Source: Mustelus asterias
Taxonomy: Eukaryota
Direction of reading: 5' to 3'
Assembly: GCF_964213995.1 (NCBI RefSeq)
Contig: NC_135823.1
Span: forward strand, 744,001-808,000
DNA length: 64,000 nucleotides
A program made the translations under genes and the position numbers. This document shows positions 1,036 through 61,180 of the stretch, piece after piece. How positions within the stretch are numbered: position 1 is the first letter of the stretch; the number at the start of each line of letters is the position of its first letter. The notes below the pieces were generated by a model. That model was given only the letters and a program-made list of their open reading frames with translations, was not told the origin of the DNA and did no database searches.

Positions 1036-2653
1036 CTCTGATATCTCTTCTTTCCATTGAACTGCTCCTACAGAAACAAATAATGAATAACTGTCATACA
1101 GCATTCTAATGGATTTTGGGATACAATTTTCAGTACTTTTTGTTCGATTTTTCATGGACTTTTTGAACCGCGTTGCTACTTTAGGCGATTTGTGAAGCTA
1201 TTCACTCGAATCCCAAATATTCCTCGAAACCATTCAGACAATAGTTTTGCAAGGAGTGATTGGGAGACTGGTGGTCTCATCAAAAAGCAGTACCTGACAC
1301 TTAATCCGTCCGGAAATCAATTTAAAATTAACATACCCACCTTGCAAGATTGTAATTTGTTATTGATGTGAGAATGTCTACTCCTGGTACGAGTGCGATC
1401 TGTAGTCCGTCTGAATCTGCAGTGAGTCTATTCCTGTCAACTGAACCCTCATAATGTCCAATGCTGGAATGGGAATATTACTGGGTGCAGTTTGCCCAAG
1501 ATTGTTTCAAAACGTGGAGATGATTTATTCCTGGGAATCGTGTGACATGGGAATGTTCAGAACATGAGGATTGTATGTTCCTGGCGAGAGAGTGGCGCAT
1601 GAATGGCGGAAATTGAAGAAGGACTAATCCTGGAAAGAGTTAGACCCTAAACCAGGAGTATGTATGTTCTCGATAATTGTGCGCAAAACTGAGATTACAG
1701 AGGGTCTATTCCTGGGAGCTACATGACCTGGAGTCTGAATGAGGCGTAACAGAATGTATTCCTTGGAAGAATGATTGCAGGGAATGTTTGAAAACCAGAG
1801 GTGATCTGTTCCCTGAGAATAGTCTGCCCTGGAAAGGTCTCACACAGTCGAGCGTCCATTCTTGGGATATGTGTATAGAGGAGGTTGTCAAAATCTAGAG
1901 AGGATCTATGCCTGCGAGATTTCTGTTCAAGAGATTGTGTTTATTTTGTGTGAATCAATTCCTTGGAAGAGCGTCCAAACAGAAGTGCTGAAAGCTTGCG
2001 TGGGTCTAGTTCTGGAAACGTTGTTCCTTCAGGAGTGTCAGAAAGTGGAGGGAGTCATATTATTTAGAAGTGTATGCCCAGGGAATGTTCCAGACACTGT
2101 GCAGACTCGAATGCACACATGATTATGAACTGTTGAGTTCCAGAAAGTGTTTGAATTGTCCATTTATCTTGGAGGGTTCCAATAATCCAGGCCTGATGTC
2201 CATCACCGTCAGCTGTCCAGACCAGTGAGTGGTCTGTCATGGGGTGTGGTTCAATCATGGGGTGGAAGTAGGGATGAAGAGCCTATTGCTAATCGCTGTT
2301 ATATTTTGCCAAGTTTATGAAACCGGGTCAGTCTGAGTTTGCACTGTACATCAGATTAAATGAGAAATATCACCTGACACAACTATATTTGAATTATCAA
2401 CTGCTGCCGTGAAACCTACAGGCCTGTAATCCACAGGTTTCATGTTCTCCCCTTATTAAACACTGGTGTTAGATTTGCTGATTTATATTCTGCAATATTT
2501 ATTCCCTCTCCCTACACCTTGCGCAGCTCCCCCACCCACACCAATTCCCTCTCCATTGGAATTATGCTGAAATTCTGTCTTGACTGTCTGGTTCCGACAT
2601 GGATAATGTTCACGCATTACTTTCCCGTTTCTTTTCCCTTCACTCTCTGACAG

Positions 2654-3554
2654 TTAATTTACTCGGAATTGTGATCCTGTGCCGGGGAAAGTGTGGACTC
2701 TCCAATTGCACCACTCGCTACCTGGTCGCCATGGCAACGGCATATCTCCTGTTCATTATCACGAACCCCATACTGACACAAATCACTGGTATTTATGTCC
2801 GATGGAGTTTACTGGACCTTACCCTTCTGTGTGGGGTAAATCTTTCCTGCTGTCTTCAGCCACAGACTGTTCTGTCTGGTTCACCATCACCTTCTCCTTG
2901 GATCAGTTTGTGGCCATTCTCTGCCAGAAACTGAAATCTTAATATTGCACCGGGAAAACTGCAGCTGTGGTCCTGGCAACAATCGGCATCCTGCTGTGTG
3001 CCAAAAACATACCCTGTTGGCTTACATGGGGACCGCGAGAGATAATCAACAACGTACCTTGCCTTTGCAAGACAAAACCAACCTATTGCATTGACCCAGG
3101 TTGGATTGGATTTGATTGGTATAAACAGATTTTAACCCCATTACTCGCATTCAGTTTAATTCTGTTGATCAACACACTGAAAGTCCAACACATTTTAGTG
3201 ACCAGTCGAGTCCGTAAGAGGCTCAGGACTCAGAGTAAGGGAGGGAATCGCAAAGACCCAGAGATGGAAAGCAGGAGGAAGTCAATGATATTACTCTTCA
3301 GTATATTTGGAACTTCCATTCTCCTGTGGTCTCCGTTTGTAATATTTTTTTTCTATGCAGATGCAAGAGGATTACTGCTCCTCAACAAGTCGGAATTTAT
3401 ATTTCAACAGATTGGATATATGCTGCTCAGTTTAAGTTGCTGCACAAATACATTTATTTATGTCGTGACTCAGTACAAATTCAGGGAGCAAATCAAGATC
3501 ACAGTGAATTATCCAGTGACATCAAAGATTCAATTAATCAATAAACGCAACTGA
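2654..3554 (+). pseudogene. GPR139/GPR142-like rhodopsin-class GPCR pseudogene (main exon)
   Basis: CTCTGACAG acceptor, then VNLLGIVILCRGKCGLSNCTTRYLVAMATA..; frameshift near 2835-2845; SVWFTITFSLDQFVAI (DRF->DQF); in-frame TAA at 2940-2942; then TM4-7 including DPEMESRRKSMILL and LSCCTNTFIYVVTQYKFREQ. Upstream first exon not identified. Confidence 0.85.
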
Positions 3555-18492: not shown

Positions 18493-18579
18493 TCATTCGG
18501 ACTCCCATTTTCGACCCACCTTCTTTTTCGATCTCTTTTCCAAAGCGACCAAATCCAGGGAGGCGTAGACGGGTCCACT
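18493..18579 (-). CDS. Gene A exon 8, terminal exon with Tyr motif VYASL
   Basis: ATATTTCAG acceptor; phase 0; [28 protein letters not shown]. Confidence 0.7.
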   Translation of the reverse strand, partial: SGPVYASLDLVALEKRSKKKVGRKWESE

Positions 18580-21500
18580 CTGAAATATTCAGAAATCATA
18601 TAAACATCATAGTGAATCATAGAACCCGCCTGTGCTGAGGGAGGCCATTCGGCCCATAGATATTTAAGATTACCCTCAATGTCAAACGCGTGACATAAAA
18701 TCATGGCATGACACAAATTCGAAGGAGACTAAACGGCCCATTGAATACGTGTTGGATCTTTGAAAGAGCTATCCATTTTTAATTCATTCTTGGGACATGG
18801 GCTTCACCCATTCGGAGTTGTCCTTGTTCAGAAGGTAGCTGAGAGTCAACCACATTGCTGTCCCTCTGTAGGCCAGACCAATTAAGAATATGAACATAAT
18901 AACATAAGCAATAGGAGCAGGAGTAGGCCATCCAGCCCCTCGAGTCTGCACCGCAATTCAATACGATCATGGCTGATCTGAAGTGAATCAGTTCCACTTA
19001 CCCGCCTGCTCCCCATAACCCTTAATTCCCCTACCGATCAGAAATCCATCTGTACGTGACTTAAACATATTCAACGAGGTAGTCTCCAGCACCTCAGTGG
19101 GCAGAGAATTCCAGAGATTCACCACCCTCTGAGAGAAGAGGTTCCTCCTCAACTCTGTCCTAAACTGACCCCCCTTTATTTTGAGCCTATGCCCTCGAGT
19201 TCTGGTTTCCTTTCTAAGTGGAAAGATTCTCTCCACTTCTACCCTAACCAGCCCCTTCATTATCTTATATGCCTCTATAAGATCACCCCTCAGCCTTCTA
19301 AGCTCCAAGAGTACAAAGCTAATCTGCTCAATCTCTCCCAATAACCTACACCCCGGTATCCGGTATCAACCTGGTGAACCTTCTCTGCCCTCCCTCCAAG
19401 GCCAATATATCCTTTTGCAAGTAAGGGGACCAAAACTGCACACAGTATTCCAGCTGCGGCCTCACCAATGCCTTGTACAGATGCAGCTAGACTTCTCTGC
19501 TTTTATATTCTATCCCCCTCGCGATAAATGCCAACATCCCATTTGCCTTCTTGATCACCTGTTGTACTTACAGACTCAATTTTTGTGACTCATGCACAAG
19601 GACCCCCAGGTCCCTTTGCACAGGAGCATGTTGTAATTGTTTTCCATTTGTATAATAGTCCAATTTGCTATTATTTCTTCCAAAGTGAATAACCTCGCAT
19701 TTGCCAACGTTATTCTCCATCTGCCAGATCCTCGCCCACTCACTTAGCCTATTCAAATCTCTCTGCAGACCTTCCGCTTCCTTCACGCAATTCACTTTCC
19801 CACTTATCTTCGTGTCGTCAGCAAACGCGTTACCCTACACTCAGTCCCCTCCTCCAGATCATCTATGTAAATAGTAAACAGTTGAGGCCCCAGTACCGAT
19901 CCCTGCGGCACGCCACGAGTCACCATCTGCCAATCAGAAAAGCACCCATTTATTCCAACTCGCTGCTTCCTGTTGGATAGCCAATCCCCAATCCACGCTG
20001 ACACCCTACCCCCAACTCCGTTGAATGGCAGATTTCCTTGCCGAAAAAAGATAAGTGAACCAGATGTGTTTTTCTGACAATGGTTTCATGGTCATGAGGA
20101 GATAATTAATTCCAGATTTTGTTTCATTGAATAAAAATTCAACCATCTGGCTTGCGGGATTCAAACTCGGATCCTTGGAACATTCGCTGGGTATCTGGAT
20201 TAATAGCCTAGCGCTAAGACAACTAGACCATTGTCTCTCCTTTAGACCAACCTTCACTTTAATGCATAATGCTCAGCTCTGTTCTTTGGAAAAAGTAGTT
20301 ATCCGATTCCTTTTTGAAAGTGGCTATTAATTCTGCTTCCATTGGCCTCTGTATCAATTGGAAATCGCGTGGTTTAATGTGCCAATGGAATAGTTAGACT
20401 GTAACATAGCAAGACCTTAAGAGACTGGAGCAGAAGTAGGCCATTCAGCCCATCGAGTCTGCTCCGCCATTCCATGAGTTCATGACTGTTCTGATTTAAC
20501 AGTCGTCAACTCCACGTTCCCGCCTTATTCCCATAACCCTTTATTCCCTGACTGAATAAGAATCTGTCCATCTCAGCCTTCAAAATGCTTTACGTCCCAA
20601 CGCCTATAGGCTGAAATTGACTGAAATAATGTAGTGACAGAGAAGCAGAATTTGGAAAGCGACTTAACAAAGGCATCACTAGTATTTATTCAGAAAACTC
20701 GTCTAATGAGTCTGTCGATTCGCTTGCTGTTAAACAGACAATCCAAGTACCATGTTTCTCAGTGTGTTATGTTCAAGGTTCCCTGATCAGCGTCTCAGCA
20801 TTTATCCTCTCAAGCCCCTTCAGAATCATAGAATCCCGATAGTGCAGAATGAGACCATTCATCCCATCGAGATTGTACGGACTCTCCCCCACCCGACCCC
20901 TGTAACCCAACAGGTTTATCATGGCATTCCATCTAACCTACACACCTTGGGATACTAAGGGACCGTACAAACTACATTTGGGAGGGAACAGGAGCACCTG
21001 GAGGAAACCTACACAGACAACGTGAGAACATGCAAACTCTACACAGACACCCATCCAAGGAATTGAACTCGGGTTGCTGGCGCTGTGAAGCAGCCGTGCT
21101 AACCACTGTGCCACCGTGCCGCCTTTGATCCTTGTGTTTCGGCAAATCCATCACATGGAATCACAACAGCCACACGCAATCAAATGTGTTGGCGCCATTG
21201 AACCACAGGACAGATATGGCAGAGAAGGAGGCCATTCCCCATCATGTCTGTGCCGGCCAGAAAGCTCGCTGTCTACTCAAATCCCACTGTCCAACACCCA
21301 ATCTGTAGCCTTGAACGTTACAGCATTTTACATACAGATTCAGGTCCCTTTTATAGGTAACTAAAATTTCCACCATCAAACCAAACAGCTAATTTCAAAC
21401 ACCAGCCACTTTGCATTTACTTTGTATCGTTCTTGGTTAAACACCTCATCGTTGACCGCCACTTGTTGAAATTGTAATCATCGAATTTAATGTGATAAAT

Positions 21501-21941: not shown

Positions 21942-24900
21942 CACACACCGACACATACTGAGAGCTGCACAGACAAATAATTTATCTCACTCACGCACAT
22001 AACCACAATCTCACACCAACACATACAGAGAGATACACAAAGAATCTCTCTCTCTCTCACACGCACACAATCTCATACCGACACATACCGAAAGAAGACA
22101 GAGAATCTCACACAGAAACAAACACACACGCATACAAATCTTTTCTATGTATTTACAAAACAAAACATCTTTTGATTTCTCGATTTAAAAACTACCATGG
22201 CTTTGGACATCGTAATTCCAGCAATTAATTCATTTCCAATTGTGCCCAGATTGGAGGAAACTGGGAGTTACGTCAGGGAGAACTGGATTCTCCGCGGAGG
22301 TAAGGAAAGTGAAAAATAACAGAAAGCTGCCAATCTGCAAATGAAACTTCGGGAAACCTGCAGAAACGTCTGACAGAGATTTTCTATCCGGAACATTAAC
22401 TCAGTCGCTGTATAATCAGTTGGAAAAGCCGCAGAGGGACATGTTATGACACCAGTGTGTGGACAAATATGATTTGAATCATAATTAGATGCTTCAGACA
22501 GTGAGCTGCTCTCTGACAGCCGCATGAAATATCCAACATGAGGCATCCTGCACCTTATTCCAAAACCCGGGAATTTTCTGCACAGTATTAAAATATTTGC
22601 AAAACACTTGCCTGAACTGCACCGTCTTGTGTTCCCATTCCATATGTTTGGCGATAGTCGTCTGTGGAACAAAGTGGAAGATTGCAATATAAATCTAATC
22701 CTGTTCCGGCTGAGCGATGATTAATCTGAGACAGTGTGGACAAATGATGCCCTGTTGCACCAATACATCAATTGGCCCAACGCCTCAATGGGTGTCAATC
22801 CAAAGAAGTCTCCCACGTACACCAGTGTTGTCCTCATACATAAAAGGTCCCTCGGTATATCAACTGTCAAGCAAGACTTCAATGGATCCCAATCCGCCAA
22901 TGGATGGACAAGGCATTTCTATCCCACTTGCTGTCTCTGGCCCTAGTAATATTTCAGTGCCAGATTTGATGGTCAACAGTTATACTTTTCTATGGGGCTA
23001 ACAGGGGATTAATATAGGAACGATTTGATGGCTGGAAGTACTCTCATTTCCTTCCATTTTAGCATTGTTTAGCACTGCTGCCTCACAGCGCCAGGGAGCC
23101 ATGTTAAATTCCACACTTCGGTGACTGTGTGGAATTTGCACTTCCTCCCTGTACCTGCGTGGGTTTCATCTGAGTGCTCCGGTCTCCTTTGAGTGCTCCG
23201 CTTTCCTCCCACTGTCAAAAGATGTGCAGATTAGGTGAATTGGCCAAGCTAAATTGCCCATGACTGTTCAAATATTAGCAGGTTAGATGAACTGGCTATG
23301 CTGAATTGTACCTTACTGTCAAAACATGTGCAGTTTAGGTGGATTGACCATGCTGAACTGCTTCTCAGTGTCCAATGATATACAAATTAGATGGATTTAT
23401 CATGCTGAATTGCTCCTTAGTATCCGAAGATGTGCAGTTTGGTTGGACTGCCATGCTGAATTGCCCCTTAGTGTCCAAAGTTGAGCAGGGTAGGTGAACT
23501 GCCCAAGCTATACAGGCTCTAAATGCCCAAACATTTGCAGGTAAGTTGGATTGGCCATGTTGAATTGCTCCGTAGTGTCCACAAATGTGCAGGTTAGGTG
23601 GATTGGCCATTCCCAATTGCCCCTTAGTGTCAAAAGATGTGTCATTTTCCCGTTAGCGTCAGGTGTTACGGGGTTAGGGGCCGGCTGGGATTGTTGTCAG
23701 TGTAGGCTCGATGGGCCGACTGGCCTCCTTCTGCACTGTAAGAATTCTATGATATGCTTGCTCAATGATATTGAATATGTGCCAACATTTGAATGCAACT
23801 TACCCGTTTGTCCGTCTGTCCGCACCCCTCTGTGTGCTGTCTCTCTCAAGCTAAAACTGAATAAGGAAATAAAAAGAATTAAGCAAATGTCACATCGGGC
23901 AAATCCTGGCTGAGAAGCCAGAAGTATTTGAAAGAAAGGATATTCAATGTTTGAAGATGGAACATTTCGCCATATAGCATTAGCATCAGTGGTGGTGTTG
24001 AACAGAGCTGAACACAACATTTAATACAGAGATAGTACTTGTGATGAATTTTGTAAATGGCTCAGTTACTCACCTTTCATTGCGGGCTCCCTCAGCTCGC
24101 TCTGCTGAAACAAGACACAATGATTAGCAGGACAAAACTATGAGGAGAATCACATTGGGTGAACAACAGTGATATTATGGTGCTGGTGGTGGATGGAACA
24201 TTTTGGTGGTGGTGGATGGAACATTTTCGGTTTGGACGCAGGTTGCTAGTGGAGTGCCACAGGGATCAGTGCTTGGTCCTCTGCTCTTTGTGATTTTTAT
24301 TAATGACTTAGAGGAGGGGGCTGAAGGGTGGATCAGTAAATTTGCTGATGACACCAAGATTGGTGGAGTAGTGGATGAGGTGGAGGGCTGTTGTCGGCTG
24401 CAAAGAGACATATATAGGATGCAAAGCTGGGCTGAAAAATGGCAAATGGAGTTAACCCTGATGAATGCGAGGTGATTCATTTTGGTAGGACAAATTTAAA
24501 TGTGGATTACAGGGTCAAAGGTAGGGTTCTGAAGACTGTGGAGGATCAGAGAGATCTTGGGGTCCATATCCACAGATCTCTAAAGGTTTCCACTCAAGTG
24601 GATAGAGCTGTGAAGAAGGCCTATAGTGTGTTAGCTTTTATTAACAGGGGGTTGGAGTTTAAGAGCCGTGGGGTTATGCTGCAACTGGACAGGACCTTGG
24701 TGAGACCACATTTGGAATATTGTGTGCAGTTCTGCTCACCTCACTATAAGAAGGATGTGAAAGCGCTGGAAAGATTGCAGAGGAGATTTACCAGGATGCT
24801 GCCTGGTTTGGAGGGTATGTCTTATGAGGAAAGGTTGAGGGAGCTAGGGCTGTTCTCTCTGGAGCGGAGGAGGCTGAGTGGAGACTTAATAGAGGTTTAT

Positions 24901-27900
24901 AAAATGAAGAAGGGGATAGATAGAGTGAACGTTCAAAGACTATTCCCTCGGGTGGATGGAGCTATTACAAGGCGGCATAACTATAGGCTTCATGGTGGGA
25001 GATATAGGAAGGATATCAGAGGTAGGTTCTTTACGCAGAGAGTGGTTGGGGTGTGGAATGGACTGCCCAGTGATAGTGGAGTCAGACACTTTAGGAACAT
25101 TTAAGCAGTTATTGGATAGGCACATGGAGCACACCAGGATGATAGGGAGTGGGATAGCTTGATCTTGGTTTCAGATAAAACTCGGCACAACATCGTGGGC
25201 CGAAGGGACTGTTCTGTGCTGTACTGTTCTATGCTCTATGTATTACCCCCCCCCCCCCTGAATATTATTGCTCACCTGCTCTGCCTTTCTTCCAAATCCA
25301 AATGGACAGAAACACCCAGAGTGGAATCGGGATCACCAGGACAGTTATGACAGTAGGATGTTCCAGATTGCAAAATCCTACAGAGGGAAAAAAAATCGAA
25401 ACTGTTGCTGAGTCAAATCATTTTTTCTGGGCTTCAAGGATGTCAAACTGAACGCAGGCAGAGTAGCCACTTGAGATTCAATGGTTTTACCATCACTGAA
25501 TCCCACACTTAAGCACGATGGCTATAAGTGCATTTTCGAGGTTGGGATTCCTGCGGTGGAACTCACCACCTGACTCCCCAAAAGCTCTCCACTGTCTGCA
25601 AAACACAATTCAGAACTGTGATGGAGTACTTCCCACTGGCCTACTTGGGTGCGCTCAAAACACTCAATAAGCTTGACTCCATCCAGGACAAAGGAGCCCG
25701 CTTGTTTGGCACCACATCCACTACCTCCACCACTCAACACTCAGAAGCAGCAGTGCGCATCATCTACTAGATGCACTGCATCAATTCACCAAAGATACTT
25801 AGACAGACCATGAGCCCACAAGAGCATAATTTCAGAAGACATGGGAGCAGAATTAGATCTCTTGTTCCATCGATTGTGCTCCGCCATTCAATCATGGCTG
25901 ATATTTTTCTCATCCCCATTCTCCTCTCTTTTTCCAATAACCACAGTTCCCCTTATTAAACAAGAACCTATCTACCTCTGTCTCAAAGACACTCAATGAC
26001 TTGGCCTCCACAGCTTTCTTCGGCAAATAGTTCCACAGATTCACCACTCTCCGGCTGAAGCAATTCCTGCTCATCTCTGTTTTAAAGGATTGCCCTTTTA
26101 GCCTGATGTTGTGCTCACTGGTTCTAGTTTTTCCTCCTAGTGGAAAGTTCCTCTCCACGTCCACTCTACCGAGGCCTCGCAGTATCCAATAAGTTTCAAT
26201 CAGATCCCCCCCTCATCCTCCTAAACTCCAATGAGTACAGACCCAGAGTCTTCAACCGTTGCTCAGACGATAAACTCTTCATTCCAGGGTCATTCTTGTT
26301 AACCTCCTCTCGACCCTTTCCAAGGCCAACACATCCTTCCTTAGATATGGGGCCCAGAACTGCTCATGATACTCCAAATGGTTTCTGACCAGAGCCTGAT
26401 ACATCCTCAGAAGTACATCCCTGCTCTTGTATTCTCGCCCTCTCGACTTGAATGCTTACATTGCATTTGCCTTCCTAGCTCCCAATGAAACGTGCACATT
26501 AACCTTAAGAGAATCTTGTCCTCTGGTACAGTCCCTGGCTTCAGTGCTACTTGAAAGATCACCACTAATGCCTCCAAAATTTCCTCAGCTATCACCTTTA
26601 GAAACCTATTGAGTAGTCCATCCGGTCCAGGTTATTCATCCACATTCTCAACTTCCTGTTTCCCCAGAACCTTCTCCTTAGTGATGGCCACGACACTCAC
26701 CTGTGCCCCTTGAGTCTCCAGGAGCTCTGACATCCCACTGATGTTTTCCACAGTGACTACTGATGCAAAATAACCATTCAGTTCCTCTGCCATTACTTTG
26801 TTTCCTATCATTACTTCTCCAGCCTCATATTCCAGTGGTCCAGTGGCTATTTTTCTCTTACCTTTTATATATTGGAAAAAAACACTCTTCCTATCTTCTT
26901 CTATATTATTAGCTAGCTTACACTCATATTTCATCCTTTCCCCTCTTATTGCTTTGTTAGTTGTCCTCTGCTCGCTTTTAAAGGCTTCCCAATCCTCTGG
27001 CTTCCCAATAATCCTTGCCACTTTGCATGCTTTTTCTTTTGCTTTTATGCTGTCGTTGACTTCCCGCGGCAGCCATGGATACTTCGGCCTCCCCTTAGCA
27101 TGTTTCCTCTTCTTTGGGATAAATTTCTGTTGTGTCTCCCGAATAACTCGCAAAAACTCTTGCCATTGCAGTTCCACTGTCTTCCCTGCTAGGCTCCTTT
27201 CCAAACTACTCTGGCCATTCCTCCCTTGTGTGTTTTTAGTTACCTTAACTTAATTGTAATACCGTTTCATCTGACTCCAGCTTCTCCCGCTCAAACTGCA
27301 GGGTAAATTCTATCATATTGTGGTCACTGCTCCCCGAGGTTTCCTTCACCTTAAGTTCCCTAATCAAGTCTGCCTCATTACGTATCACTAAATCTAGAAT
27401 TGCCTATTCCCTAGTCGGCTCTGTCACAAGCTGCTCCAAACAAAATCTCTTGGACATTCCACAAATTCATTTTCTTTGGTACACTACTTGCCTGATTTTC
27501 CCAGTCCACCTGCATATTGAAGTCCCCCATGATTATTGTAATGTTGCCCTTATTATATGCCTTCTTTATCGCCTGATTTATTTTCTGCCGCACATCCTGA
27601 CTACTGCTAGGGGGCCTGTACATAACTCCCATCAGGGTATTTTTACATTTGCGATTCCTCAAGTCTACCCTATTAGATTCCATGCTTTCTGGTCCTATAT
27701 CACTTCTTGCTATAGACTTAACTTCATTCCTTACAAACAATGCAACCTAGCCCACTTTGCCCATCGTCCTGACCTTCGAACAGGACACATATCGTTGGAT
27801 ATTTAGATACCAGCCCTGATCCCCTTGCAGCCACGCCCTTGTCCACATTGTACCAGCCAGTGCCAACGTGTGCAACAAGCCCATTTACCTTGTTCCGTAT

Positions 27901-30900: not shown

Positions 30901-32661
30901 CCCTTGTGTTTGTCATTTCTGACCTGGGAAAAAGCTTCCAACTCTTCACCCTATCTATGCCCTTCATAATTTTATAAACTTCTATTTGGTCGCCCCTCAA
31001 CCTTCTTCTTTCCAGTGAGCACAATCCTAGTTTACTCAATCTCTCCTCATAGCTAATACACTCCATACCAGGCAACATCCTTGTAAACCTTTTCTGCACT
31101 CTCTCCAAAGCCTCCACGCCCTTCTGCTAGTGTGCCGACCAGAACTGGACGCAGTATTCCAAATGTGGCCTAACCAACGTTCTATATAACTGAACGACTT
31201 CAGTTTATTAGTTTCTGGTACTTTGTCCCAATTGATTAGGAATTGAATTCAAAACACCATTGTGGAAATTAACAACTCACCTGTCCCAGTCTCTGCTGCT
31301 GTGGAGAACGACACACTCTTTGTCAAGTATTTCCCTGGAATTCCCAGTTCAACAATGCAAGTACAGACAGCGCCACTTCTCCAAATGTCCGCCGACACCA
31401 TGACATGAGTTCTGATGCTGTGGGTCCCGTCTTCTTCCATTGTCCCGGGATCACTCGATCCCTCAGTGACCTGGCCGGAAATATTCCAGAAAATAGCAAT
31501 CTGGTTGGAAGAAACTCCACTGACCAAACACACTAAAGGCACGGTGTCATTCAAATCCAGCTCACCTGGCGGGATAAATACCAGCACCGCCGTCTTCGTG
31601 GTGGAACTGTCTGGACAGATTGGGACAAAGTTAATGATTAATTTGCTCAAAATGCTAATGCCGTGCACAATCTGAATTAAGTACGCTTGATCTCTTACCT
31701 CCAACCAGGAGTGTGTGTCCATTCCGGAATGGTGCAGTCCCAGCTATATCGAAACAGTGGTAAGAACCCGAGTCATTCGTCTGGACATTGCGAATTCTCA
31801 GAATCAATGCATTTGCTGGGTTGCCTTTTTCAGAAATATATTTGCAATCGGCCCCAATACAAGATGCAGTGTTTATTCGTATCGGGGCTTCACCCAAACG
31901 CTGTTTGTACCAAGCACAGTTAGACACCCAAAACACTTCAGAAGTCACATAATAGGACAATTCCACCTCCTGGCCCACTTCAGCTGTCATTGTGAAGGGG
32001 ATTTGAGACAGAGAGGACTCGGATTCTGTAACTAGAAAGATTATTGCTACGTTACCACCGATTTTGAAATATCTGCAGCGGTCTCTTAAAAAAAATACCT
32101 CGCCTGCATTTAAAGCTTCTAGTTTATCTATTAGTGTCACCGACAGGCTTACGTTAACACTGCAATGAAGCTATGGTGAAAATGCCCCAGTCGCCACACT
32201 TCGGTGCCTGTTCGGGCACACTGAGGGAGAATGTAGCCCGGCCAATGCACCAAACCAGCACGTCTTTCGAACTGTGGGCACCCGCGGTAAACACACGCAA
32301 ACAATGGGAGAACGCGTGGACCAGCACAGGCAGTGGCCAAGCTGGGAATTGGTACTCTGTCCCTGGTGCTGTGAGGCCACTGTTGCACCATGCCGCTCAA
32401 ATTAATTATTCTTTGTCATCATTGTTGGTTAAATGTATTCTTCAGTTTATATCTTCTTCGCTTTATGGGTGGAAGCAATAAATGAACCGATATGATCAGG
32501 TCAGATTCCTCCACCTGATCACTGGCTCACGTTTTCAGCTTAGAAAACTCTCCTTCTGGTTTATAAAAGTGATTTTGCTTAAAATTCCCTCCTGCCTCTT
32601 ACTCACAGTGAAGACATTGTAGTTGGAAAATGAGTGTCACAGATAAGGAGCCTTTCGCCAT
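18493..32661 (-). CDS. Gene A: germline-joined V(J)-C1-TM-cytoplasmic IgSF receptor (TCR/Ig-light-chain-like architecture, non-rearranging), ~344 aa, 8 coding exons
   Basis: Manually spliced exons: 32661-32607, 32031-31699, 31610-31281, 25377-25276, 24104-24074, 23850-23804, 22661-22612, 18579-18493 (sum 1035 nt). Intron phases 1,1,1,1,2,1,0 all join in frame; all introns are GT-AG except one GC-AG. Protein: [19 protein letters not shown] / [30 protein letters not shown] / C1 / [34 protein letters not shown] / ..[28 protein letters not shown]. Confidence 0.8.
18895..20020 (-). mobile_element. CR1 LINE 3' fragment
   Basis: [46 protein letters not shown]. Confidence 0.85.
21620..22140. repeat. 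(CA)n/(CT)n-rich microsatellite region
   Basis: Long CA runs, e.g. 21908-21948. Confidence 0.9.
22612..22661 (-). CDS. Gene A exon 7, cytoplasmic ([17 protein letters not shown]), GC donor
   Basis: CTTTGTTCCACAG acceptor; CAG|GCAAGT donor (GC-AG consensus); 50 nt, phase 1-0, which is the phase needed to join exons 6 and 8. Confidence 0.6.
23065..23750 (+). repeat. SINE with internal ~52-bp unit expanded to ~8 tandem copies
   Basis: Unit ~AAAGATGTGCAGGTTAGGTGGATTGGCCATGCTAAATTGCCCCTTAGTGTCC repeated at 23218-23640. Confidence 0.85.
23804..23850 (-). CDS. Gene A exon 6, cytoplasmic ([16 protein letters not shown])
   Basis: Long pyrimidine tract ..TTCAGTTTTAG acceptor (alternative in-frame start at 23856), CGG|GTAAGT donor; phase 2-1. 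Confidence 0.7.
24074..24104 (-). CDS. Gene A exon 5, cytoplasmic mini-exon ([10 protein letters not shown])
   Basis: TCTTGTTTCAG|CAG tandem acceptor, AAG|GTGAGT donor; 31 nt, phase 1-2. Confidence 0.65.
24178..25240 (+). mobile_element. CR1 LINE 3' fragment (gene A intron 4)
   Basis: [39 protein letters not shown]; tail TTCTATG; 21-nt 5' tandem duplication TGGTGGTGGATGGAACATTTT. Confidence 0.9.
25276..25377 (-). CDS. Gene A exon 4, stalk Cys + transmembrane segment
   Basis: T8CCCTCTGTAG acceptor, CAG|GTGAGC donor; 102 nt, phase 1-1. Encodes [34 protein letters not shown] with a basic stop-transfer sequence. Confidence 0.8.
25830..28710 (-). mobile_element. CR1 LINE with ORF1 esterase-like and endonuclease remnants, internally deleted (gene A intron 3)
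   Basis: [11 protein letters not shown] (ORF1), GVMYRPP..IIMGDFN (APE), [12 protein letters not shown], 3' SRRVVNLW. Confidence 0.8.
28753..29114 (+). mobile_element. Young HE1-like tRNA-derived SINE with CR1-type tail
   Basis: A/B boxes (GGTAGCACAGTGG, GGTTCGATTCC), (TTCTATGAT) tail, ACAAGG target duplication (28749, 29115), duplicated 5' head. Confidence 0.9.
30625..31195 (-). mobile_element. CR1 LINE 3' end
   Basis: [33 protein letters not shown]; tail (TGTTCTT)-like. Confidence 0.9.
31281..31610 (-). CDS. Gene A exon 3, Ig C1-set domain
   Basis: TGTCCAG acceptor, CAG|GTGAGT donor, 330 nt. Motifs [32 protein letters not shown] are typical of antigen-receptor C1 domains. Confidence 0.92.
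31699..32031 (-). CDS. Gene A exon 2, Ig V-set domain with J-like G strand in the same exon
   Basis: TCTTTCTAG acceptor, GAG|GTAAGA donor. V motifs: LSQ, G-Q-E-V-E-L-S, WYKQ, LxIxNVQxxDSGxYxC. J-like [10 protein letters not shown]. The B-strand Cys position is Tyr. Confidence 0.9.
32607..32661 (-). CDS. Gene A exon 1, signal peptide [18 protein letters not shown]
   Basis: aagATGG start context; 55-nt hydrophobic leader; phase-1 donor T|GTGAGT. Confidence 0.8.
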
Positions 32662-32900
32662 CTTGATAGAGATTTCCTTGTATTCTGTCTGACTGGTTTC
32701 CTTCTGGAGGCACAATGGCTGCAGACTGACCTGGTCTGAATCGCATTGAGTTGGGCTTTTCAGATTCGTTGGAAACTATGACGAGCTCTGCTGTGGAAAT
32801 TGTGACACCATTGTGGTGAAGTGTTCGGTTGAATACGACAGTCGTTTGACATATCTCACCGTTTGTGTGACCCAACTGGTCGTACACATAACCAATAACT
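32662..32900 (-). promoter_or_regulatory. Putative proximal promoter/5'UTR of gene A
   Basis: Non-repeat sequence directly upstream of the ATG. Contains RUNX-type TGTGGT (32812-32817), GGAAA (32771, 32795) and a TGACG half-site (32779). These motifs are short, so support is weak. Confidence 0.3.
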
Positions 32901-34054
32901 TTTCTGGAAAATAGGTCACAGTACGACTGGACGGATGTATGCTGAATCCTATTCGCGATTAAATATTTATTATTAATGGACATAACCGTGGCTCGCTAGC
33001 ATTTATTGCCATTCTTAGCTGCCCGAGGACAGTTGAGAACCAACCACATTGCTCTGGCTCTGAGGTCACATGTAGGCAATACCAGGTACGGACGGCAGAT
33101 TTCCTTCCCTAAAGGGCATCAGTGAACCAGATAGGTTCTTTATCGTCAATCGACAACGGCTTCATGAGCCATCAGGAGTAGGTTCTTAATTCCAGATTTG
33201 TTTTATTTAACTCAAATTCCATCGTCTGCCGTGGCGAGATTTGAAACCATGTCCCCAGAGTATTAGTTGCGTTTCTGGATTAATAGTCTAGCGATAATAA
33301 CACAAGGCCATCGCCTCACCATAAATCGAAAATCAGCACTGAGATGGTGCTGCTGATCCAGTTTTTGAAAATCTATTCTGTCACCTCTCAGCCTTGTGTT
33401 CTTGAGTAAAAAGAGTCCCAGCCTGTTTTACCTTTCCTGTGATTTATGACATCTCAGTCCAGCTATCCTTCTTAGAAATCCTGGTTGCACCAATTCTAGT
33501 GTCACAATTTCTCTTTGCACCATGGAAGGGCGCAGATATGGACAGTTAGTCCAACTTCGAAACCAGATCTTCCATACAAAAAACAACTTATCCGTTTTAC
33601 AGGTATATTCACCTGCAGTTGGGTTTGTATTTTTCCAGTGAATTTAAGAAGCAACTTCAACAAGAAGAGTCGTGTGTCAAAATGATTCACTGCAACAAGG
33701 CGGCACGGTGGCACAATGATTAGCACTGCTGCCTCACAGTGTCAGGGACCTGGGTTCAATTCCTGATTTTGGTCACTATCTGTGCGGAATCAGCTTGTCT
33801 TCCTGTGGCTGCGTGGATTTCCTTCCGGTGCTCCAGTTTCCCCCCACACTCCGAAAGACGCCCTAGTTCGGTGCATTGACCGTGCTAAATTCTCCGTTAG
33901 TGTACCTGAACAGGCGACAGAGTGTGTCAACTCGGAGATTTTCACAGTAACTGCATTACAGTGTTAATGCAAGGCTACTTGTGATACAAAGAAATTTTTA
34001 AAAATCTAAATGCTCATTTGCAATCACATCGATTTGTAAACTGTGCATGACTTT

Positions 34055-48225: not shown

Positions 48226-51200
48226 TGTAACGTCGAGGCAAATAATATTTGTTGACTAACATACTTCACAGTATGGGCACAAATATTACTGTGCAGTTAA
48301 AGCTCGTGTTTGTCGCAGTTGAGTAACTCGTTTTTTTTTCCAGTTTGAAGTGAAAGGCAGCAAGGTTTAGTCCTGCTTGTTATTTTCATTACTGTTGAGA
48401 AAAAGTGTAAAGCGCATCGTCTTGCACTCTCAAGCGTGGACGTTTCTGCTAGAAACTGCGGTTGAAGGATAGTCAGCGATAAACGCCGGGCGTAGTTTTC
48501 ACTGAGACAATGGAGAGAACTAGGATTAGCTGAAGCTAACTTGATAAGTAGGACTCCGAGGAGGACGACTTCAGCGCACTGGACCTGCGTTACTACACGG
48601 ATAGCTTGCTGCATTTTTTTTCCTGCTGCATCATCTTCTCGCTCGCAGACCCTTCTCGACTGTGTGTCGTGGTTGCTTCAGTAACTGGAGACTATATTAT
48701 CAGACACTGAATGGTGTCAGCGGTGTGTTGTTGAGGGCGTGTTTTCTTCATATGTGCACCAACGTATGGGCCCCAACGTTTATAAATCCAAGCGCTTCGT
48801 AATATTTTGAACATTTCTCAGGGTTGAAGCGGTTTAATTGAGAAATCTTTAGCTTGGGACACTTTACCTGTTTTATGAGACGCAACAATACAAGAAAATA
48901 AATGTATTTTTGTTATTCCTTTTGCATGGTTGTCCTGAACCTTTTCTTATTAAAAGGTTTACATACCATTTTAGGAGGCACCGCGCTATTATTAATAGGT
49001 CATTACTCTAGATTGCAACTGCATACACTAATCCTTTTCATTCACGCCTGTACTGACATTTATTGGTTAATAGGAAATTTAGCCTAGCTGAACACCAACC
49101 GCTAAGAACTCAGGATCCTGTGAATTGAACGTTTACATAGTAGCCCCTTATAACATCAAGCACCTCCCAGGTACAGCTTTATTTAACTCAGCTGGTCATA
49201 GCATATAGTTGTCAGCAGGGGGTTACATTTTTTGGAGGCACCGCTGGGATCTCCTATTTACCAGACAGGTCAAATATTTTTTTCTTTCTTCTTTTCGTCA
49301 GTTAGTAACAGTTAACTCAGTAATTATAGCAGCACAAAAAAAAAGTTTTTTCAGTGTTAGTAGCTCACTTAAGACAATGGATTTTTCTCAGGCTTCTATT
49401 TGGAGCCGGCAAAAGCAAATCAGTCTTTCTCGTGCCGTATTACTGAGCGATGTGCCAATAGATACTGGTGAGGGGACCATTGCTGGGGTCTTAAACACTG
49501 TGAAAGTCTTTGGTCGCACCACGATTTGTGGTTGCCGTGGGGATTCTACTGGCAATCAGTTGTTCATACTCGTGGAGACTAGCATTGATTTAACCCCTGA
49601 CACTGGCCCTCCAGATGTAGGTATTGAAGGAGAAGCTGGGCCATGAGCTGTGCATACGCTAGAAAGCCGTGTCACACAAGATGCTGTTCCTGAAGAGGAT
49701 CCGTTCCATACAAAGCTGTTGTTATTACTACAACAGGGAGGCAAGTCAATGGAGGACTTTCAGGCCATAGTATCAGAAAATCAAGCTCCCAAAGTGGATG
49801 TGAACATGGATTTCGTGACTGTTATTGGCAAACTAGTGGACAAGCACAACCAAGTGTCTACCGATGGGCCTGGCTACAGAAAGCTGAGACTGTTTTCAGA
49901 TCTGAAACCTGTACCACCAAGTGAGGAAGAATATGATGCCTGGATGGAGCAGGCTACCCAGATGATCAGTGAGTGGCAATGCACAGACGCCGCCAAGAGA
50001 CAGCACACAGTGGAGAGTTTAAAAGGGCCTGCTGCTGGCATCATCCGATTTTTGAAAGTTAGCACTCCCACTGCGACGGCAACCGATTATTTATCTGCTC
50101 TGGACACAGCTTATGGAAATCACAGAGAGTGGAGCCGACATCTTGGCCAAGTTCAGACACACATACCAGAATGAAGGTGAAAAACTCTCTGCTTTTCTAT
50201 ATCGCCTTGACAAACTTCTCCATCGTGCTCTTCTTACGCGAGGGAATTACGGCTGCAGACTTGAATCGAGCTCGGATGAAACAGCTAGTCAAGGGTGCAC
50301 TCACTCGAGACATGGTTGCTCTGCGAGTAAGGATGAGCCACACCCTGGACAAACCCCCTTCGTTTTCCCAGCTGATGCGGGAGGTAAGAGAGGAAGAAAA
50401 TTGGATTAGCGCCAGAGAAGGGGTGAAAGCTACTGTTTCCGCAGCCACCGCCACTGTACCGCAGCCCTCAGTTACGTCTGAGTTGAACAGCCTACGAAAT
50501 GAGGTAAGGGAACTGACTTTTCAGGTGACCAGGATGTTGAGCGCCGTTCCAGTTACCCCTACATCTGAAAGTACGACAGCAAGGACTGGGTCCGTACAGC
50601 AAGCACCAGAAGGTACTGTTGGGGATGCGTCGCCCCGAGTGACAATGTCCAAACCACTGCCGGCAGGAATCTTTTGCTCCAGTTGTGGGCAAGATGGGCA
50701 TACAAGGAGAGAGTGCAAAGAACCCGAGGATCTGTGGAAAGTAAATCAGAAGCTGATCAAAGTCTGCAGACAGCAGGGAAACTTCCCAGGAGCCAGGTGA
50801 AGGAACGGTGCTTGGTTCTGTGTGAAATACGTTCCACCCAATGTCCACCCCCAGCAAAGGAAGGCTCAAAACAGTTACCTGCAGGATTAGTGGGGCCCAT
50901 CTCTGATGTACCTGTGCAAATAGAAGGAGTTTATGCAAGAGCTTTGCTTTACAGTGGCTCCCAAGTAACCATTTTGTATCGCAACTTCTATGACACCTAG
51001 CCGAAACACTTTCCTCTCCAGCCACTTGAAGACCTGGAAATATGGGGTTTAAGCTCTCACCAATACCCATATGATGGCTACCTGTCCATACAACTCGAGT
51101 TCACTGATGCTGTAACCTGAGTGCCGCAGGCAGTTGACACTTTGGCCTTAGTATGTCCTAACCCTGTGAAAGATGACAACATTGCCATGCTGGTGGGGAC

Positions 51201-52096
51201 AAATACCCGGCTGGTAAGAAAGTTGGTAGAGTCCTGTAAAGAGGAGGCAGGGGACCGATTCTTGGGTACTTTGACCATACACCCCGTCCTCCGAGAAGTT
51301 ATGAGACACTCACCCAGTCTGAAACCACAGAAGGGGTAGACAAGCATGGTACTGTGTGGTTTACCCAGCACAAGCCAATCACCTTGCAACCAGGATAAGT
51401 GTTTAAAGTCACTGGCCTCCCAAAGTTTCCTGGTGATTTCACAGACCAGGTAGCACTGGTAGATCAGCCTAATGACACTTTTTCCCCTGAAGAGTTGGGG
51501 TGAGGCCTGAGGTTCATCCTGCATCAGTTGTTCATAGCAGACGCATTACTGTGACTGTGAAGAACCTGTCATCCAGAGAAATCTCCTTGAAACGTGGGAC
51601 TCAACGATCCCACGTTTTTCCAGTCGCCCCTGTTGCTCTGCCGAGGGCACCGTGTGCAGATGAAGCTTTAATCGAACTGACCCCTTCATCTTTTGATTTC
51701 AGAGCCTCTCCTATGCCAGAGGAGGCAAAAAGGCGTCTCTGTGAGAAAATGATGACGAGGAAGGAGGTCTTCTCGCAGCACGAGTGGGATGTAGGTTGTT
51801 CTAAAAGCACCAGACATGAAATAAGACTGAAGGATGCAAGGCCCTTCCGAGAGAGGTCATGTCGCTTGTCGCCTGCTGACTTTGAGGATGTGCGCCAGCA
51901 CCTACAGGAACGATGGAGCCATGGCATCATCTCTGAATCGCGTAGTCCCTACGCATCGCCAATAGTAGTCGTACGCAAGAAGTCAGGGAAGGTACGAATG
52001 TGCGTGGACTACCAAACCCTTAACCTTCGAACAATACCGGATCAGTACACTGTCCCAAGGATAGATGACGCTCTTCACTGCTTGTCTGAGAGTAAG
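48226..52096 (+). mobile_element. Ty3/Gypsy LTR retrotransposon, 5' part only (LTR, PBS, PNMA-like gag, protease, start of RT), decayed
   Basis: LTR ends ..GGTTACA at 49227 (5' start TGTAAC at 48226, or possibly TGTAG at ~47889). gag starts at ATG 49377 and includes YRKLRLFS..EEEYDAWMEQA..ESLKGPA and the zinc knuckle CSSCGQDGHTRREC. Protease ALLYSGSQVT; RT SPYASPIVVVRKKSGKVRMCVDY..DQYTVPRIDD. Several stops and frameshifts; cut off by a CR1 at ~52097. Confidence 0.9.
49233..49250 (+). promoter_or_regulatory. Primer-binding site of the Gypsy element, tRNA-Thr type
   Basis: TGGAGGCACCGCTGGGAT begins 5 nt after the LTR end. It is complementary to ATCCCAGCGGTGCCT-CCA, the 3' end of vertebrate tRNA-Thr(AGT) as I recall it. 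Confidence 0.8.
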
Positions 52097-54173: not shown

Positions 54174-54951
54174 CTTTGGATTGTGGAAGAAAACCGGGGG
54201 AAACCCTCACAGACACGGGGAAAACGTGCAAACTCGACACACACACTCGCCCAAAGACAGAATTGAACTCAGGGTCCGGGTTCAATGTCATTTGTCCGGG
54301 CACAAAATATGTGAGTTATCTCCATTGATAATATGGGCAATTGGAGACAGGAGATCTTTTTCAATTAGAACGTTGGACTAAATCATCAACTCTGGATAAA
54401 TGTTAAGCGCCCAAAGTTAACGGAGAAGAAGAATCTAAGTATAGATGGGAGAGAATATTCGCTGAAAGATGTTGCATTGTAGAAGTTCTTTAATTTCTTA
54501 TATTCACAAATATCTGGGATTAAGTACCTACTGATGATAATTAAACCATTCTCCATTGTCGGGAAAATCATCTGGTTTAGTAATATCTTCTAGGCAAGGA
54601 AATCTGCGCTCCATGTGACTCCACAGCTATAGCAATGTGGTTGAATCTCAACTGCCCTCCAAGGGCAACTAGGGATGGACAATAAATGCTGGCCTGCTAA
54701 CGACACCCATGCCCCATGAATGAATAATAAGAAAAAGACAGCTCCCATTCGTCCACCCGAGTGTTTCAATCAGATTGAAGGGAGTATGGATCCGGGTTCC
54801 GCCTTTATAATTTGAGCATGAAAACGTGCCAGTCCGCGCCACAATCAGTGCGATTTTAATTGAGAAAGAAAAATCCCTATCGGTGTATCTTCGTTTGTGG
54901 GGGAAACGTTCTATAACCTGACATGACACTCGTTTTATTTCTATTTCCCAG

Positions 54952-55293
54952 TTTCAGTGTCTCAGTCCATCGTGTTTCAGTCTCTGCAGGTTCAGACACT
55001 CCCGGTGGGGAGTCGTGTTAAACTCAGCTGTCATATTCAGTTCTCCGTTACTGGCTCCGTATTGTGGTCCAGACAGAGGGAGCTCAGTGACACGAAGCTG
55101 CTTTCAGATGACGAGCAAGCAGTTCCCAGCGGCCGGGAGGTTTTCCAGTGAGATTTCTGACAAAGAAGATAATTACTCACTGATCAATGTGGGACACATG
55201 GAAAAAACTATTCTGCAATGTATTACTGTGCAATGCGCAATTTCCAAACGCGCGCGCTAATCTTCGGAAACGGCTCCAAATTAGTGATTACAG
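54952..55293 (+). pseudogene. Gene B V-J exon (frameshifted)
   Basis: TTTCCCAG acceptor; SVSQSIVFQ..VGSRVKLSC..W.RQ / GRFSSEISDKEDNYSLI (shifted frame) / SAMYYCAMRNFQTRALIFGNGSKLVIT, with a TCR-like FGxG J motif. Confidence 0.85.
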
Positions 55294-55477
55294 AGACATA
55301 TTTTCATTTTTTTCCCATTGAAATGGCATATGAATATCATTTAAATGTTTTCCTACTCCAACTGTTAAAATTTAAAGTTTATTCATTAGTGTCACAAGTT
55401 GCCTACATGAGCACTGCAATAAACTTACTGTGAACATCTCCGACTTAATGGGTTCTCTTTCTTGTTGTCGGATTTAG

Positions 55478-55783
55478 CGGGTTCTCCCAGCATATTCCTC
55501 CTCACTCCGCCGCTGGATGAGTTTCCAGCCATGGAAAAGGTCCCATTGTTGTGTTTGGTCAGAGGCGTGTCTCCAGATTCCTTTCCCGTCAGCTGGAATT
55601 TTGACGGGCGGGATACCGAGGGACAGACCGATTCCTGGAAAATGGAACAGGACGGGACCGACACTGTCCGCAGTTACATCAGCCTCTCGGCGGAAGTTTG
55701 GAGCAGCGGCGCTCGCATTTCTTGCACCGTTCAGATCAACTCTGGTGATAATCCTCTGAGTGAAAGTGTCTCAGCTCAGATAG
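55478..55783 (+). CDS. Gene B C1-set exon (open)
   Basis: GATTTAG acceptor, TAG|GTAGAT donor, 306 nt; PSIFLLTPP..VPLLCLVRG..VSWN..DGT..W.SG..SCTV..ESVS. Confidence 0.9.
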
Positions 55784-56739
55784 GTAGATATTCACAGCGA
55801 CCACTCATAAATCTACTTAGTGCTAATGTGAGGATTTACTGTGGCCCACACTTGTAAATTACAAGTCCCTCGATTTCTGATTGCCTCCACGGAAATTGGC
55901 GGCACCGGGGTACAGTGGCTCGCACTGCTGCTTCACAGCGCCAGAGACCCAGGTTCAATTCCACACTGTTTGTGTGGAGTCTGCACGTTCTCCCGTGTCT
56001 TCGAGGTTTCCACCGGGTGCTCCGGTTTTCTCCCACAGCCAAATGATGTGCAGGTTAGCTGGATTGGGCATGCTAAATTGTGCCTTAGTGTCCAAAAATG
56101 TGTCGGCTGGGTGGATTGGCCATAGTAAGTTGCCCCTTAGTGTCAGAGGGGTAATGCAGGAAAAGCAGGTTAGATCTGGTGGTGTTATGAGATTATAGGG
56201 TCTTGGTGGGTTTGTTGTCGGTGCATGGTCGATGGGCTGAATGGCCTTCTTCTGCACTGTAAGGATTCTACGATTCTATGATCCTATGTGTACAATGAAT
56301 CATTATTCTATGACAGGCCTCTCAAACGTTCATTGTTTCGTTTTCTGAAAATATACCTCCTTTTTTCTGTACCCTAGCGAGTTGTGGAGGTTCAAGTCAG
56401 TGAGATCGCGTTGGATTAATGAATTGGTGGGACGGGCGGGAAGTTTGAGATTTTGTAGAAGATTAGCATGATGTTATTGCATGGCGGAGCGGCCTGCAGG
56501 GGCGGAGTGGCCTTCTGCTGCTTCTATTGATTGTGCTCTTCTGTCTGACTAGGCCACAGTTGGTGGTCAGTGACTGTTTGGCTATGCATAAAACTGAAAA
56601 GTCTGATTACCTTCCCAGAGACACTTTATACCAACGTGCCTTTGTGTAATAATTTATGTATCCCTTCATATCCCTACTTCTCTCTGACTAAGTTAAACAC
56701 TTTAATTCCCTACCTGTTTATCTTTGTGCTATTGATGAC

Positions 56740-58207: not shown

Positions 58208-58312
58208 ATTCTCCACTCCCGACCAAATGCATTTTCCTGCTTTCCGGGGCTTTATCGGTCGTGACACTTCTCCTTCTGGGACTAGTTCTTGTGGCCGTGA
58301 ACCGGCAGAGAG
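58208..58312 (+). CDS. Gene B stalk Cys + transmembrane exon
   Basis: TTTTTCCTTTTGCAG acceptor; phase 1; DSPLPTKCIFLLSGALSVVTLLLLGLVLVAVNRQR; GT donor at 58313 or 58319 (both phase 1). Confidence 0.8.
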
Positions 58313-58446: not shown

Positions 58447-58505
58447 AGACCGTGAACAGTGGCGAGGAACTGACAGGTTCCCGAGAACAGAAACAGAATC
58501 AGGAG
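58447..58505 (+). CDS. Gene B cytoplasmic exon (ETVNSGEELTGSREQKQNQE)
   Basis: TCTTTCTAACAG acceptor, GAG|GTGAAT donor; phase 1-0. Confidence 0.65.
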
Positions 58506-61150: not shown

Positions 61151-61180
61151 ACACTTTACGCTCCTCTGGCCTTCAACTGA
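61151..61180 (+). CDS. Gene B terminal exon (TLYAPLAFN*), ITSM/ITIM-like motif
   Basis: ATCCACAG acceptor in non-repeat sequence between a SINE and a CR1; phase 0 matches the preceding exon; TxYxxL. Confidence 0.55.
   Translation, partial: TLYAPLAFN

Follow-up and report, generated by a model that had tools for sequence, protein, structure and literature searches.

A shark array of leader-VJ-C1-TM-tail receptor genes, likely germline-encoded paired receptors that never rearrange

The window analysed here is a stretch of 64,000 nucleotides of Mustelus asterias DNA, taken from contig NC_135823.1 (C23) at positions 744001-808000, and its nearest named relatives are shark proteins. Two receptor genes of the same plan, designated A and B, were delineated exon by exon. 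Their features are as follows, counted from the first letter of the window.

Gene A
32607..32661, - strand: leader exon, 55 nt, with a phase 1 donor
31699..32031, - strand: single VJ exon, 333 nt, with an 8-residue CDR3 equivalent and a J-like end
31611..31698, - strand: V-C intron, 88 nt, GT-AG
31281..31610, - strand: C1 exon, with a C1-set match
25276..25377, - strand: exon with a stalk cysteine and an uncharged transmembrane segment (TM)
24074..24104, - strand: cytoplasmic exon 1
23804..23856, - strand: cytoplasmic exon 2
22612..22661, - strand: cytoplasmic exon 3, with a GC donor
18493..18579, - strand: last coding exon, with an ITIM-like PVYASL and the stop

Gene B
54952..55293, + strand: single VJ exon, broken, with an 11-residue CDR3 equivalent, an FGNG J motif and the donor AG
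55478..55783, + strand: C1 exon, after a 184-nt intron
58208..58312, + strand: exon with a stalk cysteine and TM
58447..58505, + strand: cytoplasmic exon 1
61151..61180, + strand: last exon, with a TLYAPL motif and the stop

Gene A is open over 8 exons and encodes 346 residues, with one GC donor. Its V piece matches Pfam V-set (E 2e-6), and the C1 exons downstream of V in both genes match Pfam C1-set (E 6e-9). Cys104 is encoded at 31756-31754, and the VJ exon ends at 31699, immediately followed by the donor (G/GTAAGA, - strand). The J motif is degenerate and reads FRNG, the norm of A-type genes being LxNG and not FGxG. The first V cysteine is missing, with a tyrosine at the Cys23 position, and the product may misfold; the VJ exon also encodes an extra Cys57 and a Cys76/Cys81 loop pair. 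The same replacement of Cys23 by tyrosine (window 31940-31970) recurs in two paralogs, L009 and L024, together with a cysteine just before the conserved Trp, and the sequences make an alternative disulfide possible in these three copies. In A-type V domains the C'-D region is short and contains a cysteine pair. The tail comprises 78 residues. The initial annotation described a long tyrosine tail; tail exons do exist, but gene A has only three tyrosines, of which one lies in a conserved motif (PVYASL). No RNA run was listed as carrying gene A.

Gene B reads YYC-AMRNFQTRALI-FGNGSKLVIT up to the exon end at 55293, and the 5′ part of its V piece matches Pfam V-set (E 0.026). Three one-base insertions (at about 55105, 55190 and 55202) interrupt the V, with a stop after the first, and the donor is AG where most paralogs have GT. 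A leader exon was searched for and not found. Contigs of two runs from one sample span 54942-55394 without a gap and carry the same lesions with 2 substitutions, so that the lesions are probably not assembly errors, with the qualification that the contig sample may be the assembly's own. Other features of the window are a probably broken rhodopsin-family GPCR in two frames (2584-3551; 7tm_1, E 2e-7 for the second piece) and, in the interval from gene A to gene B, gag and pol frames of LTR-retrotransposon type that look broken (49209-52096, judged by eye).

In both genes, the F-strand cysteine, the short loop and the J-like strand all lie within one exon. Reading of the exons and domain matches thus uphold the initial annotation in its claim that V and J-like segments are contiguous. 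It was equally correct that neither gene has a recombination signal sequence (RSS): no RSS-like site with up to 4 mismatches occurs in 31000-33000 or 54500-56000. A scan of the whole window with up to 3 mismatches returned one site, at 21110 and far from both V exons, for a mean of 1.2 in 20 shuffles.

Genes A and B belong to a large array. C1 searches of the genome gave at least 45 loci, 24 A-type and 21 B-type, which is a lower bound. Nearly all are located on C23 between 0.08 and 1.72 Mb, with a few near 3.2 Mb and on C73, and V exons are free of stops in 16 of 23 A and 14 of 18 B loci. Synteny markers were looked for at C23 1.72-3.41 Mb, where 16 sampled stretches of 10 kb gave repeats and no marker; retrovirus-like reading frames occur at 2.4 and 2.6 Mb (L130, L132), in the repeat-rich stretch that separates the array's two parts. 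No proteasome gene was matched on C23, and a search of the genome for the MHC class II beta family gave no match anywhere. All 140 genome matches to MHC class I are on C8, while the array is on C23. C8 also carries an NCR3-like VJ exon (20.46 Mb), a UrIg-like gene (1.85 Mb) and a kappa-type cluster (50-51 Mb).

The organisation seen in the window extends to the whole family. Contiguous VJ was found in all 41 of the 45 loci that could be mapped across the junction; the other four are damaged and without an RSS-like site (an insertion in the 5′ part of V in L023, a 25-nt deletion in L028, about 3.9 kb inserted in the V-C intron in L042, and general degeneration in L044). Close paralogs with RSS-split V and J segments, for which the initial annotation had proposed a search, were sought and none was found among the 45 loci. 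Only 2 of the 41 V regions contain an RSS-like site, and neither site is at the junction: the first lies far upstream, the second within the J-like coding end of a gene that is a pseudogene. As a positive control, the split light chain (IgL) loci L071 and L077, found by C homology, both score; they are the only independent ones, the 11 kappa loci having been picked by their RSS, which makes that control circular. Genome-wide, the exact 12-RSS has 21 matches, none on C23, and among the 224 matches to the 23-RSS, the first 100 in contig order, which run past C23, include one C23 site, at 40.1 Mb. Measured from Cys104 to the end of the exon, the junction is 57 nt long in 22 of the 23 A loci that were mapped and 66 nt long in 17 of the 18 such B loci, even though the loop sequence varies. 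Matches of intact family V exons to the query run on into the J-like strand; those of most rearranging V segments elsewhere stop near residue 94-101. The V-C introns are 88-93 nt long in the 19 A loci measured and 94-187 nt in the 14 B loci measured. The same intron in IgL genes of this genome is about 2.5-4.3 kb (four lambda-type genes) or 6.9 kb (one kappa-type gene).

One locus inside this non-rearranging array is of another kind. L077 (5718-8332, C23 1.596-1.598 Mb) is a split IgL gene of sigma or sigma-2 character, comprising a V with a 12-RSS, about 300 nt, a degenerate 23-RSS with a degenerate J that has no clear donor, and a C; it may be a pseudogene. Its C domain groups weakly with sigma (81/42), outside the VJ-C1 family. 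Other joined VJ and C1 genes with an IgL-like terminal cysteine are found on C373 (L067) and C75 (L080/L099), and their C domains group loosely with that of C2496, outside both the VJ-C1 family and the lambda-type clade.

Relatives with the V-C1-stalk Cys-TM-tail plan were found in many sharks, rays, a chimaera, sturgeons, paddlefish, gar and salmonids, and also in lungfish, coelacanth, a caecilian, turtles and alligator; none of the 30 proteins looked up is from a bird, and relatives in the ESM Atlas bear automatic names only. A C1 tree of 76 rows places the 36 family rows on one branch (100/99), a clade that is favoured by the use of the family profile to choose family rows and domain boundaries. 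Within it, an A-type subclade (98/86) unites chimaera, sharks, rays, sturgeon, paddlefish, lungfish, turtle and alligator. If the bony-vertebrate models correspond to single exons, a state read there from protein models and not from DNA, these sequences suggest that the joined state and the division into A and B types are both older than the split between cartilaginous and bony fish. A topology that unites 16 shark and ray family rows with 7 IgL rows fails the AU test (p-AU 1.9e-7). The family is not nested in IgL, IgH or one TCR-beta-like row, but TCR C domains are sparsely sampled in this tree and one short TCR-beta-like row was dropped, which makes it a poor test of nesting in TCR; ten stretches of C24 yielded no shark TCR C exon. 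When rooted on a SIRP-like row, the tree places the family on the same side as Ig, TCR-beta-like and UrIg-like C1 domains (99/85).

The absence of RSS has to be read against the joined light chains of sharks. Excerpts of PMC2193156 report that RAG joins shark IgL genes in the germline, and excerpts of PMC12227049 that shark IgL lambda is wholly germline-joined. The isotype labels used here rest on the character of the sequences, their RSS layout and their place in the tree. In the joined lambda-type cluster on C13, 14 of 16 loci also have no RSS-like site, the two matches lying away from the junction, so that RSS absence does not discriminate an unsplit from a joined exon. Likewise, secondary joining could equally leave a family with no split paralog in sharks, since shark lambda is wholly joined (PMC12227049, in the part available). 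The initial annotation had further proposed comparing CDR3-equivalent lengths across paralogs. These are near-fixed in the family, yet they discriminate weakly: joined lambda-type junctions are also mostly uniform, with four length classes over 16 loci (11 in ten, 9 in four, 8 and 5 in one each), the count leaving aside 8 of 24 lambda-region loci that have no V with a J motif. One V of the lambda-type region, on C13 at 61.41 Mb (L103), has no following J motif and is broken or unjoined. By themselves, then, RSS absence, a missing split paralog and uniform length cannot separate an exon that was never split from one joined long ago.

Other features do bear on the origin of the genes. An origin as IgL miniclusters joined recently in the germline, as in shark lambda or NS4, would agree with their V-C1 layout and with the automatic database names (immunoglobulin kappa or lambda light chain-like). 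Germline-joined shark IgL (lambda/NS3 and joined kappa/NS4; PMC2193156, excerpts) indeed shares contiguous VJ, the absence of RSS and tandem V-C units. However, its C is of the secreted type without TM, whereas genes A and B have TM and tail exons; its J-C introns are of kilobase size, against 88-187 nt here for V-C introns that reach 2.5-6.9 kb in IgL; its junction length is more varied; and its C1 domains form a clade separate from the family. NS4-type joined genes have close split relatives, and the parts of PMC2193156 consulted demonstrate secondary joining precisely by the nesting of joined genes among near-identical split ones; the VJ-C1 family has no such partner in 45 loci. The TM and tail exons, the C1 tree and the p-AU value rule out a recent IgL minicluster, an origin that is barely tenable. 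The initial annotation had argued to this effect, and its rejection of a joined IgL cluster stands, carried by the TM and tail, the short introns, the separate C1 clade and the p-AU test; the primitively unsplit exon that it favoured instead is no more than the likelier reading.

An older joining event is harder to set aside. A rearranging V-J-C-TM gene might have been joined once by RAG in a stem jawed vertebrate, then gained an ITIM tail and been duplicated into the A and B types. Joining by RAG in the shark germline (PMC2193156) and the joining of a whole isotype with no split shark copy left (PMC12227049), both as given in the portions available, provide precedents, and joining leaves no RSS. 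The B-type keeps a canonical FGxG, its best solved-structure matches are TCR alpha and antibody V domains, and a split, RSS-bearing IgL gene (L077) lies inside the array. Against this, none of the 45 loci is split, the C1 tree keeps the family outside IgL, IgH and the TCR-beta-like row (TCR being sparsely sampled), and a short V-C intron with an ITIM-like tail is unlike Ig or TCR genes. The nesting test for secondary joining gives no hold on this family because there are no split relatives to nest among. We consider ancient joining possible but unlikely. A primitively unsplit exon is the likelier reading because the joined state runs deep across jawed vertebrates and needs at most one very early joining event.

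In the V-domain tree the family is not recovered as one clade (18/71) and the deep forks are open. A-type V domains fall weakly beside NITR-like rows (82/0) and have a degenerate J motif, as would fit a J-like end that is simply the usual G strand of V-set receptors such as SIRP, NITR or CD8, with no special tie to antigen receptors. Joined-VJ proteins include CD79, NITR, SIRP, CD8, NKp30 and PRARP (PMC11599192, excerpts). Taken alone, an exon in which V and J are fused and RSS are lacking is a common feature of V-type receptors. This origin nevertheless seems highly improbable, as a true C1 domain directly follows V and the SIRP-rooted C1 tree has the family on the side of Ig, TCR-beta-like and UrIg-like domains. 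It concerns ancestry and is compatible with a paired-receptor mechanism.

The coding sequences are indicative of such a mechanism. Both chain types exist in an ITIM-like version and in a TM-arginine version. Most family proteins have one ITIM/ITSM-like tyrosine, stalk cysteines recur, and 13 of 99 proteins with a called TM (113 examined) have a TM arginine without an ITIM/ITSM-like motif. A TM arginine without a motif in some copies and an ITIM-like tyrosine in others is the usual signature of paired activating and inhibitory receptors. Contigs of probable RNA runs from another species (the RNA label being a guess) pass from VJ into C1 with 88 and 184 nt skipped, the lengths of the introns, and they keep the germline junction length, as far as contigs that drop rare junction variants can tell. 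For the CDR3 equivalent of A-type genes the pN/pS ratio is 1.5-3.4, and for CDR1 in a set of six close B genes it is 4.2; framework gives 0.4-0.8 and C1 about 0.5-0.6. The signal of selection is weak, the A-type CDR3-equivalent intervals touching zero and only 1 of 10 CDR partitions excluding it. An A:B ectodomain model, built with horn-shark relatives and as a heterodimer only, forms a V-V, C1-C1 dimer with a score of 0.64, the best of 3 controls reaching 0.01. Between runs, 75% or more of the contacts are shared; the partner pLDDT is at least 78, and both stalk cysteines lie in the interface. The mark attained by this model is reached by 51 of 78 solved pairs and 2 of 108 mismatched pairs, with a prediction tool that is uncalibrated on antibodies, and the score may reflect memory of, or likeness to, Fab and TCR structures.

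Altogether, the family has a single VJ exon without RSS, a near-fixed junction length and two chain types, and extends from chimaera to alligator. The best explanation, which we regard as likely, is that genes A and B are tandem leader-VJ-C1-TM-tail receptors forming part of a germline-encoded set of paired immune receptors that never rearrange, their VJ exon most likely descending from one that RAG never split. In this model, receptor diversity would arise from gene duplication and point changes in the loops, not from RAG. The A and B chains are predicted to pair V to V and C1 to C1, like a TCR or a Fab, with the stalk cysteines linking them. Inhibition, via SH2 phosphatases, would fall to the copies with one ITIM/ITSM-like tyrosine, and activation, via an ITAM adaptor, to those that lack the motif and have a TM arginine. 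The joined exon first flagged here is of a known kind, and the interest of the array lies in its expansion, its paired forms and the predicted pairing of two chains.

A bolder reading, which appears doubtful on the present evidence, is that the array is a living form of a pre-RAG two-chain antigen receptor, whose A and B chains pair as TCR chains do, with a combinatorial A/B repertoire, drawn from the V exons free of stops, in inhibitory and activating versions and no recombination. If it were true, the VJ-C1 family rather than UrIg would be the closest relic of the gene split by the RAG transposon. Intact VJ-C1 genes bear on the origin of Ig and TCR, and a two-domain membrane VJ-C1 protein with two chain types is closer in shape to TCR than are UrIg and UrIg2, which are multi-domain homodimers. 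The family has been kept from chimaera to alligator and expanded in sharks, and its pairing, cell type and ligands are testable. No description of the shark array was found in the literature searched; Fu 2019, Ohta 2019 and Flajnik 2023 may cover it.

Among known systems, the closest is probably PRARP, of which the VJ-C1 family, judged by gene plan, chain types and distribution, is probably the shark counterpart. A 2019 study reportedly described PRARP as a pair of non-rearranging VJ-joined genes of V-C1 organisation in non-avian vertebrates, with one ITIM/ITSM-like motif and disulfide-linked dimers; orthologs are said to occur in bony fish, amphibians and reptiles, and the proteins to be expressed at the surface of B and T cells. 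The shark family has this plan (a single VJ exon, one C1, TM and one ITIM/ITSM-like motif), and its relatives match the two gene types and the bony fish, amphibian and reptile orthologs. It differs in having at least 45 copies here and TM-Arg forms among its relatives, and no record labelled PRARP was met among the relatives looked up. PRARP is called a VJ gene "in the MHC" in the available part of PMC10751288, a phrase that perhaps refers to other species or to a paralogous region, whereas in this shark the array and MHC class I occupy different contigs, C23 and C8; the portions seen of PMC12227049 do not mention PRARP. UrIg and UrIg2 of elasmobranchs share a non-rearranging single VJ exon followed by C1, in sharks, but UrIg is secreted and has three C1 domains where the VJ-C1 family has one and is membrane-bound, and UrIg2 has nine or more and forms A/G-strand homodimers (PMC12227049, excerpts). 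Genes A and B have neither VJ with at least three C1 domains nor a place in the UrIg clade, and the UrIg-like genes of this genome (C8 and C16, so labelled here) fall outside the family clade. Nor do they show the RSS-flanked V, (D) and J segments, or the charged TM and short tail in every chain, of rearranging TCR genes. By the features tested, the family is therefore not IgL, TCR or UrIg. NITR has V-I domains, NKp30 V only, and SIRP V-C1-C1; the VJ-C1 family differs from all three in combining V-C1 with two chain types. It shares with them joined VJ, birth-and-death arrays, and inhibitory and activating forms (PMC7916673 and PMC11599192, in excerpt), and in its mode of action it likely resembles paired receptors of the NITR or SIRP type, with an antigen-receptor-like VJ-C1 frame.
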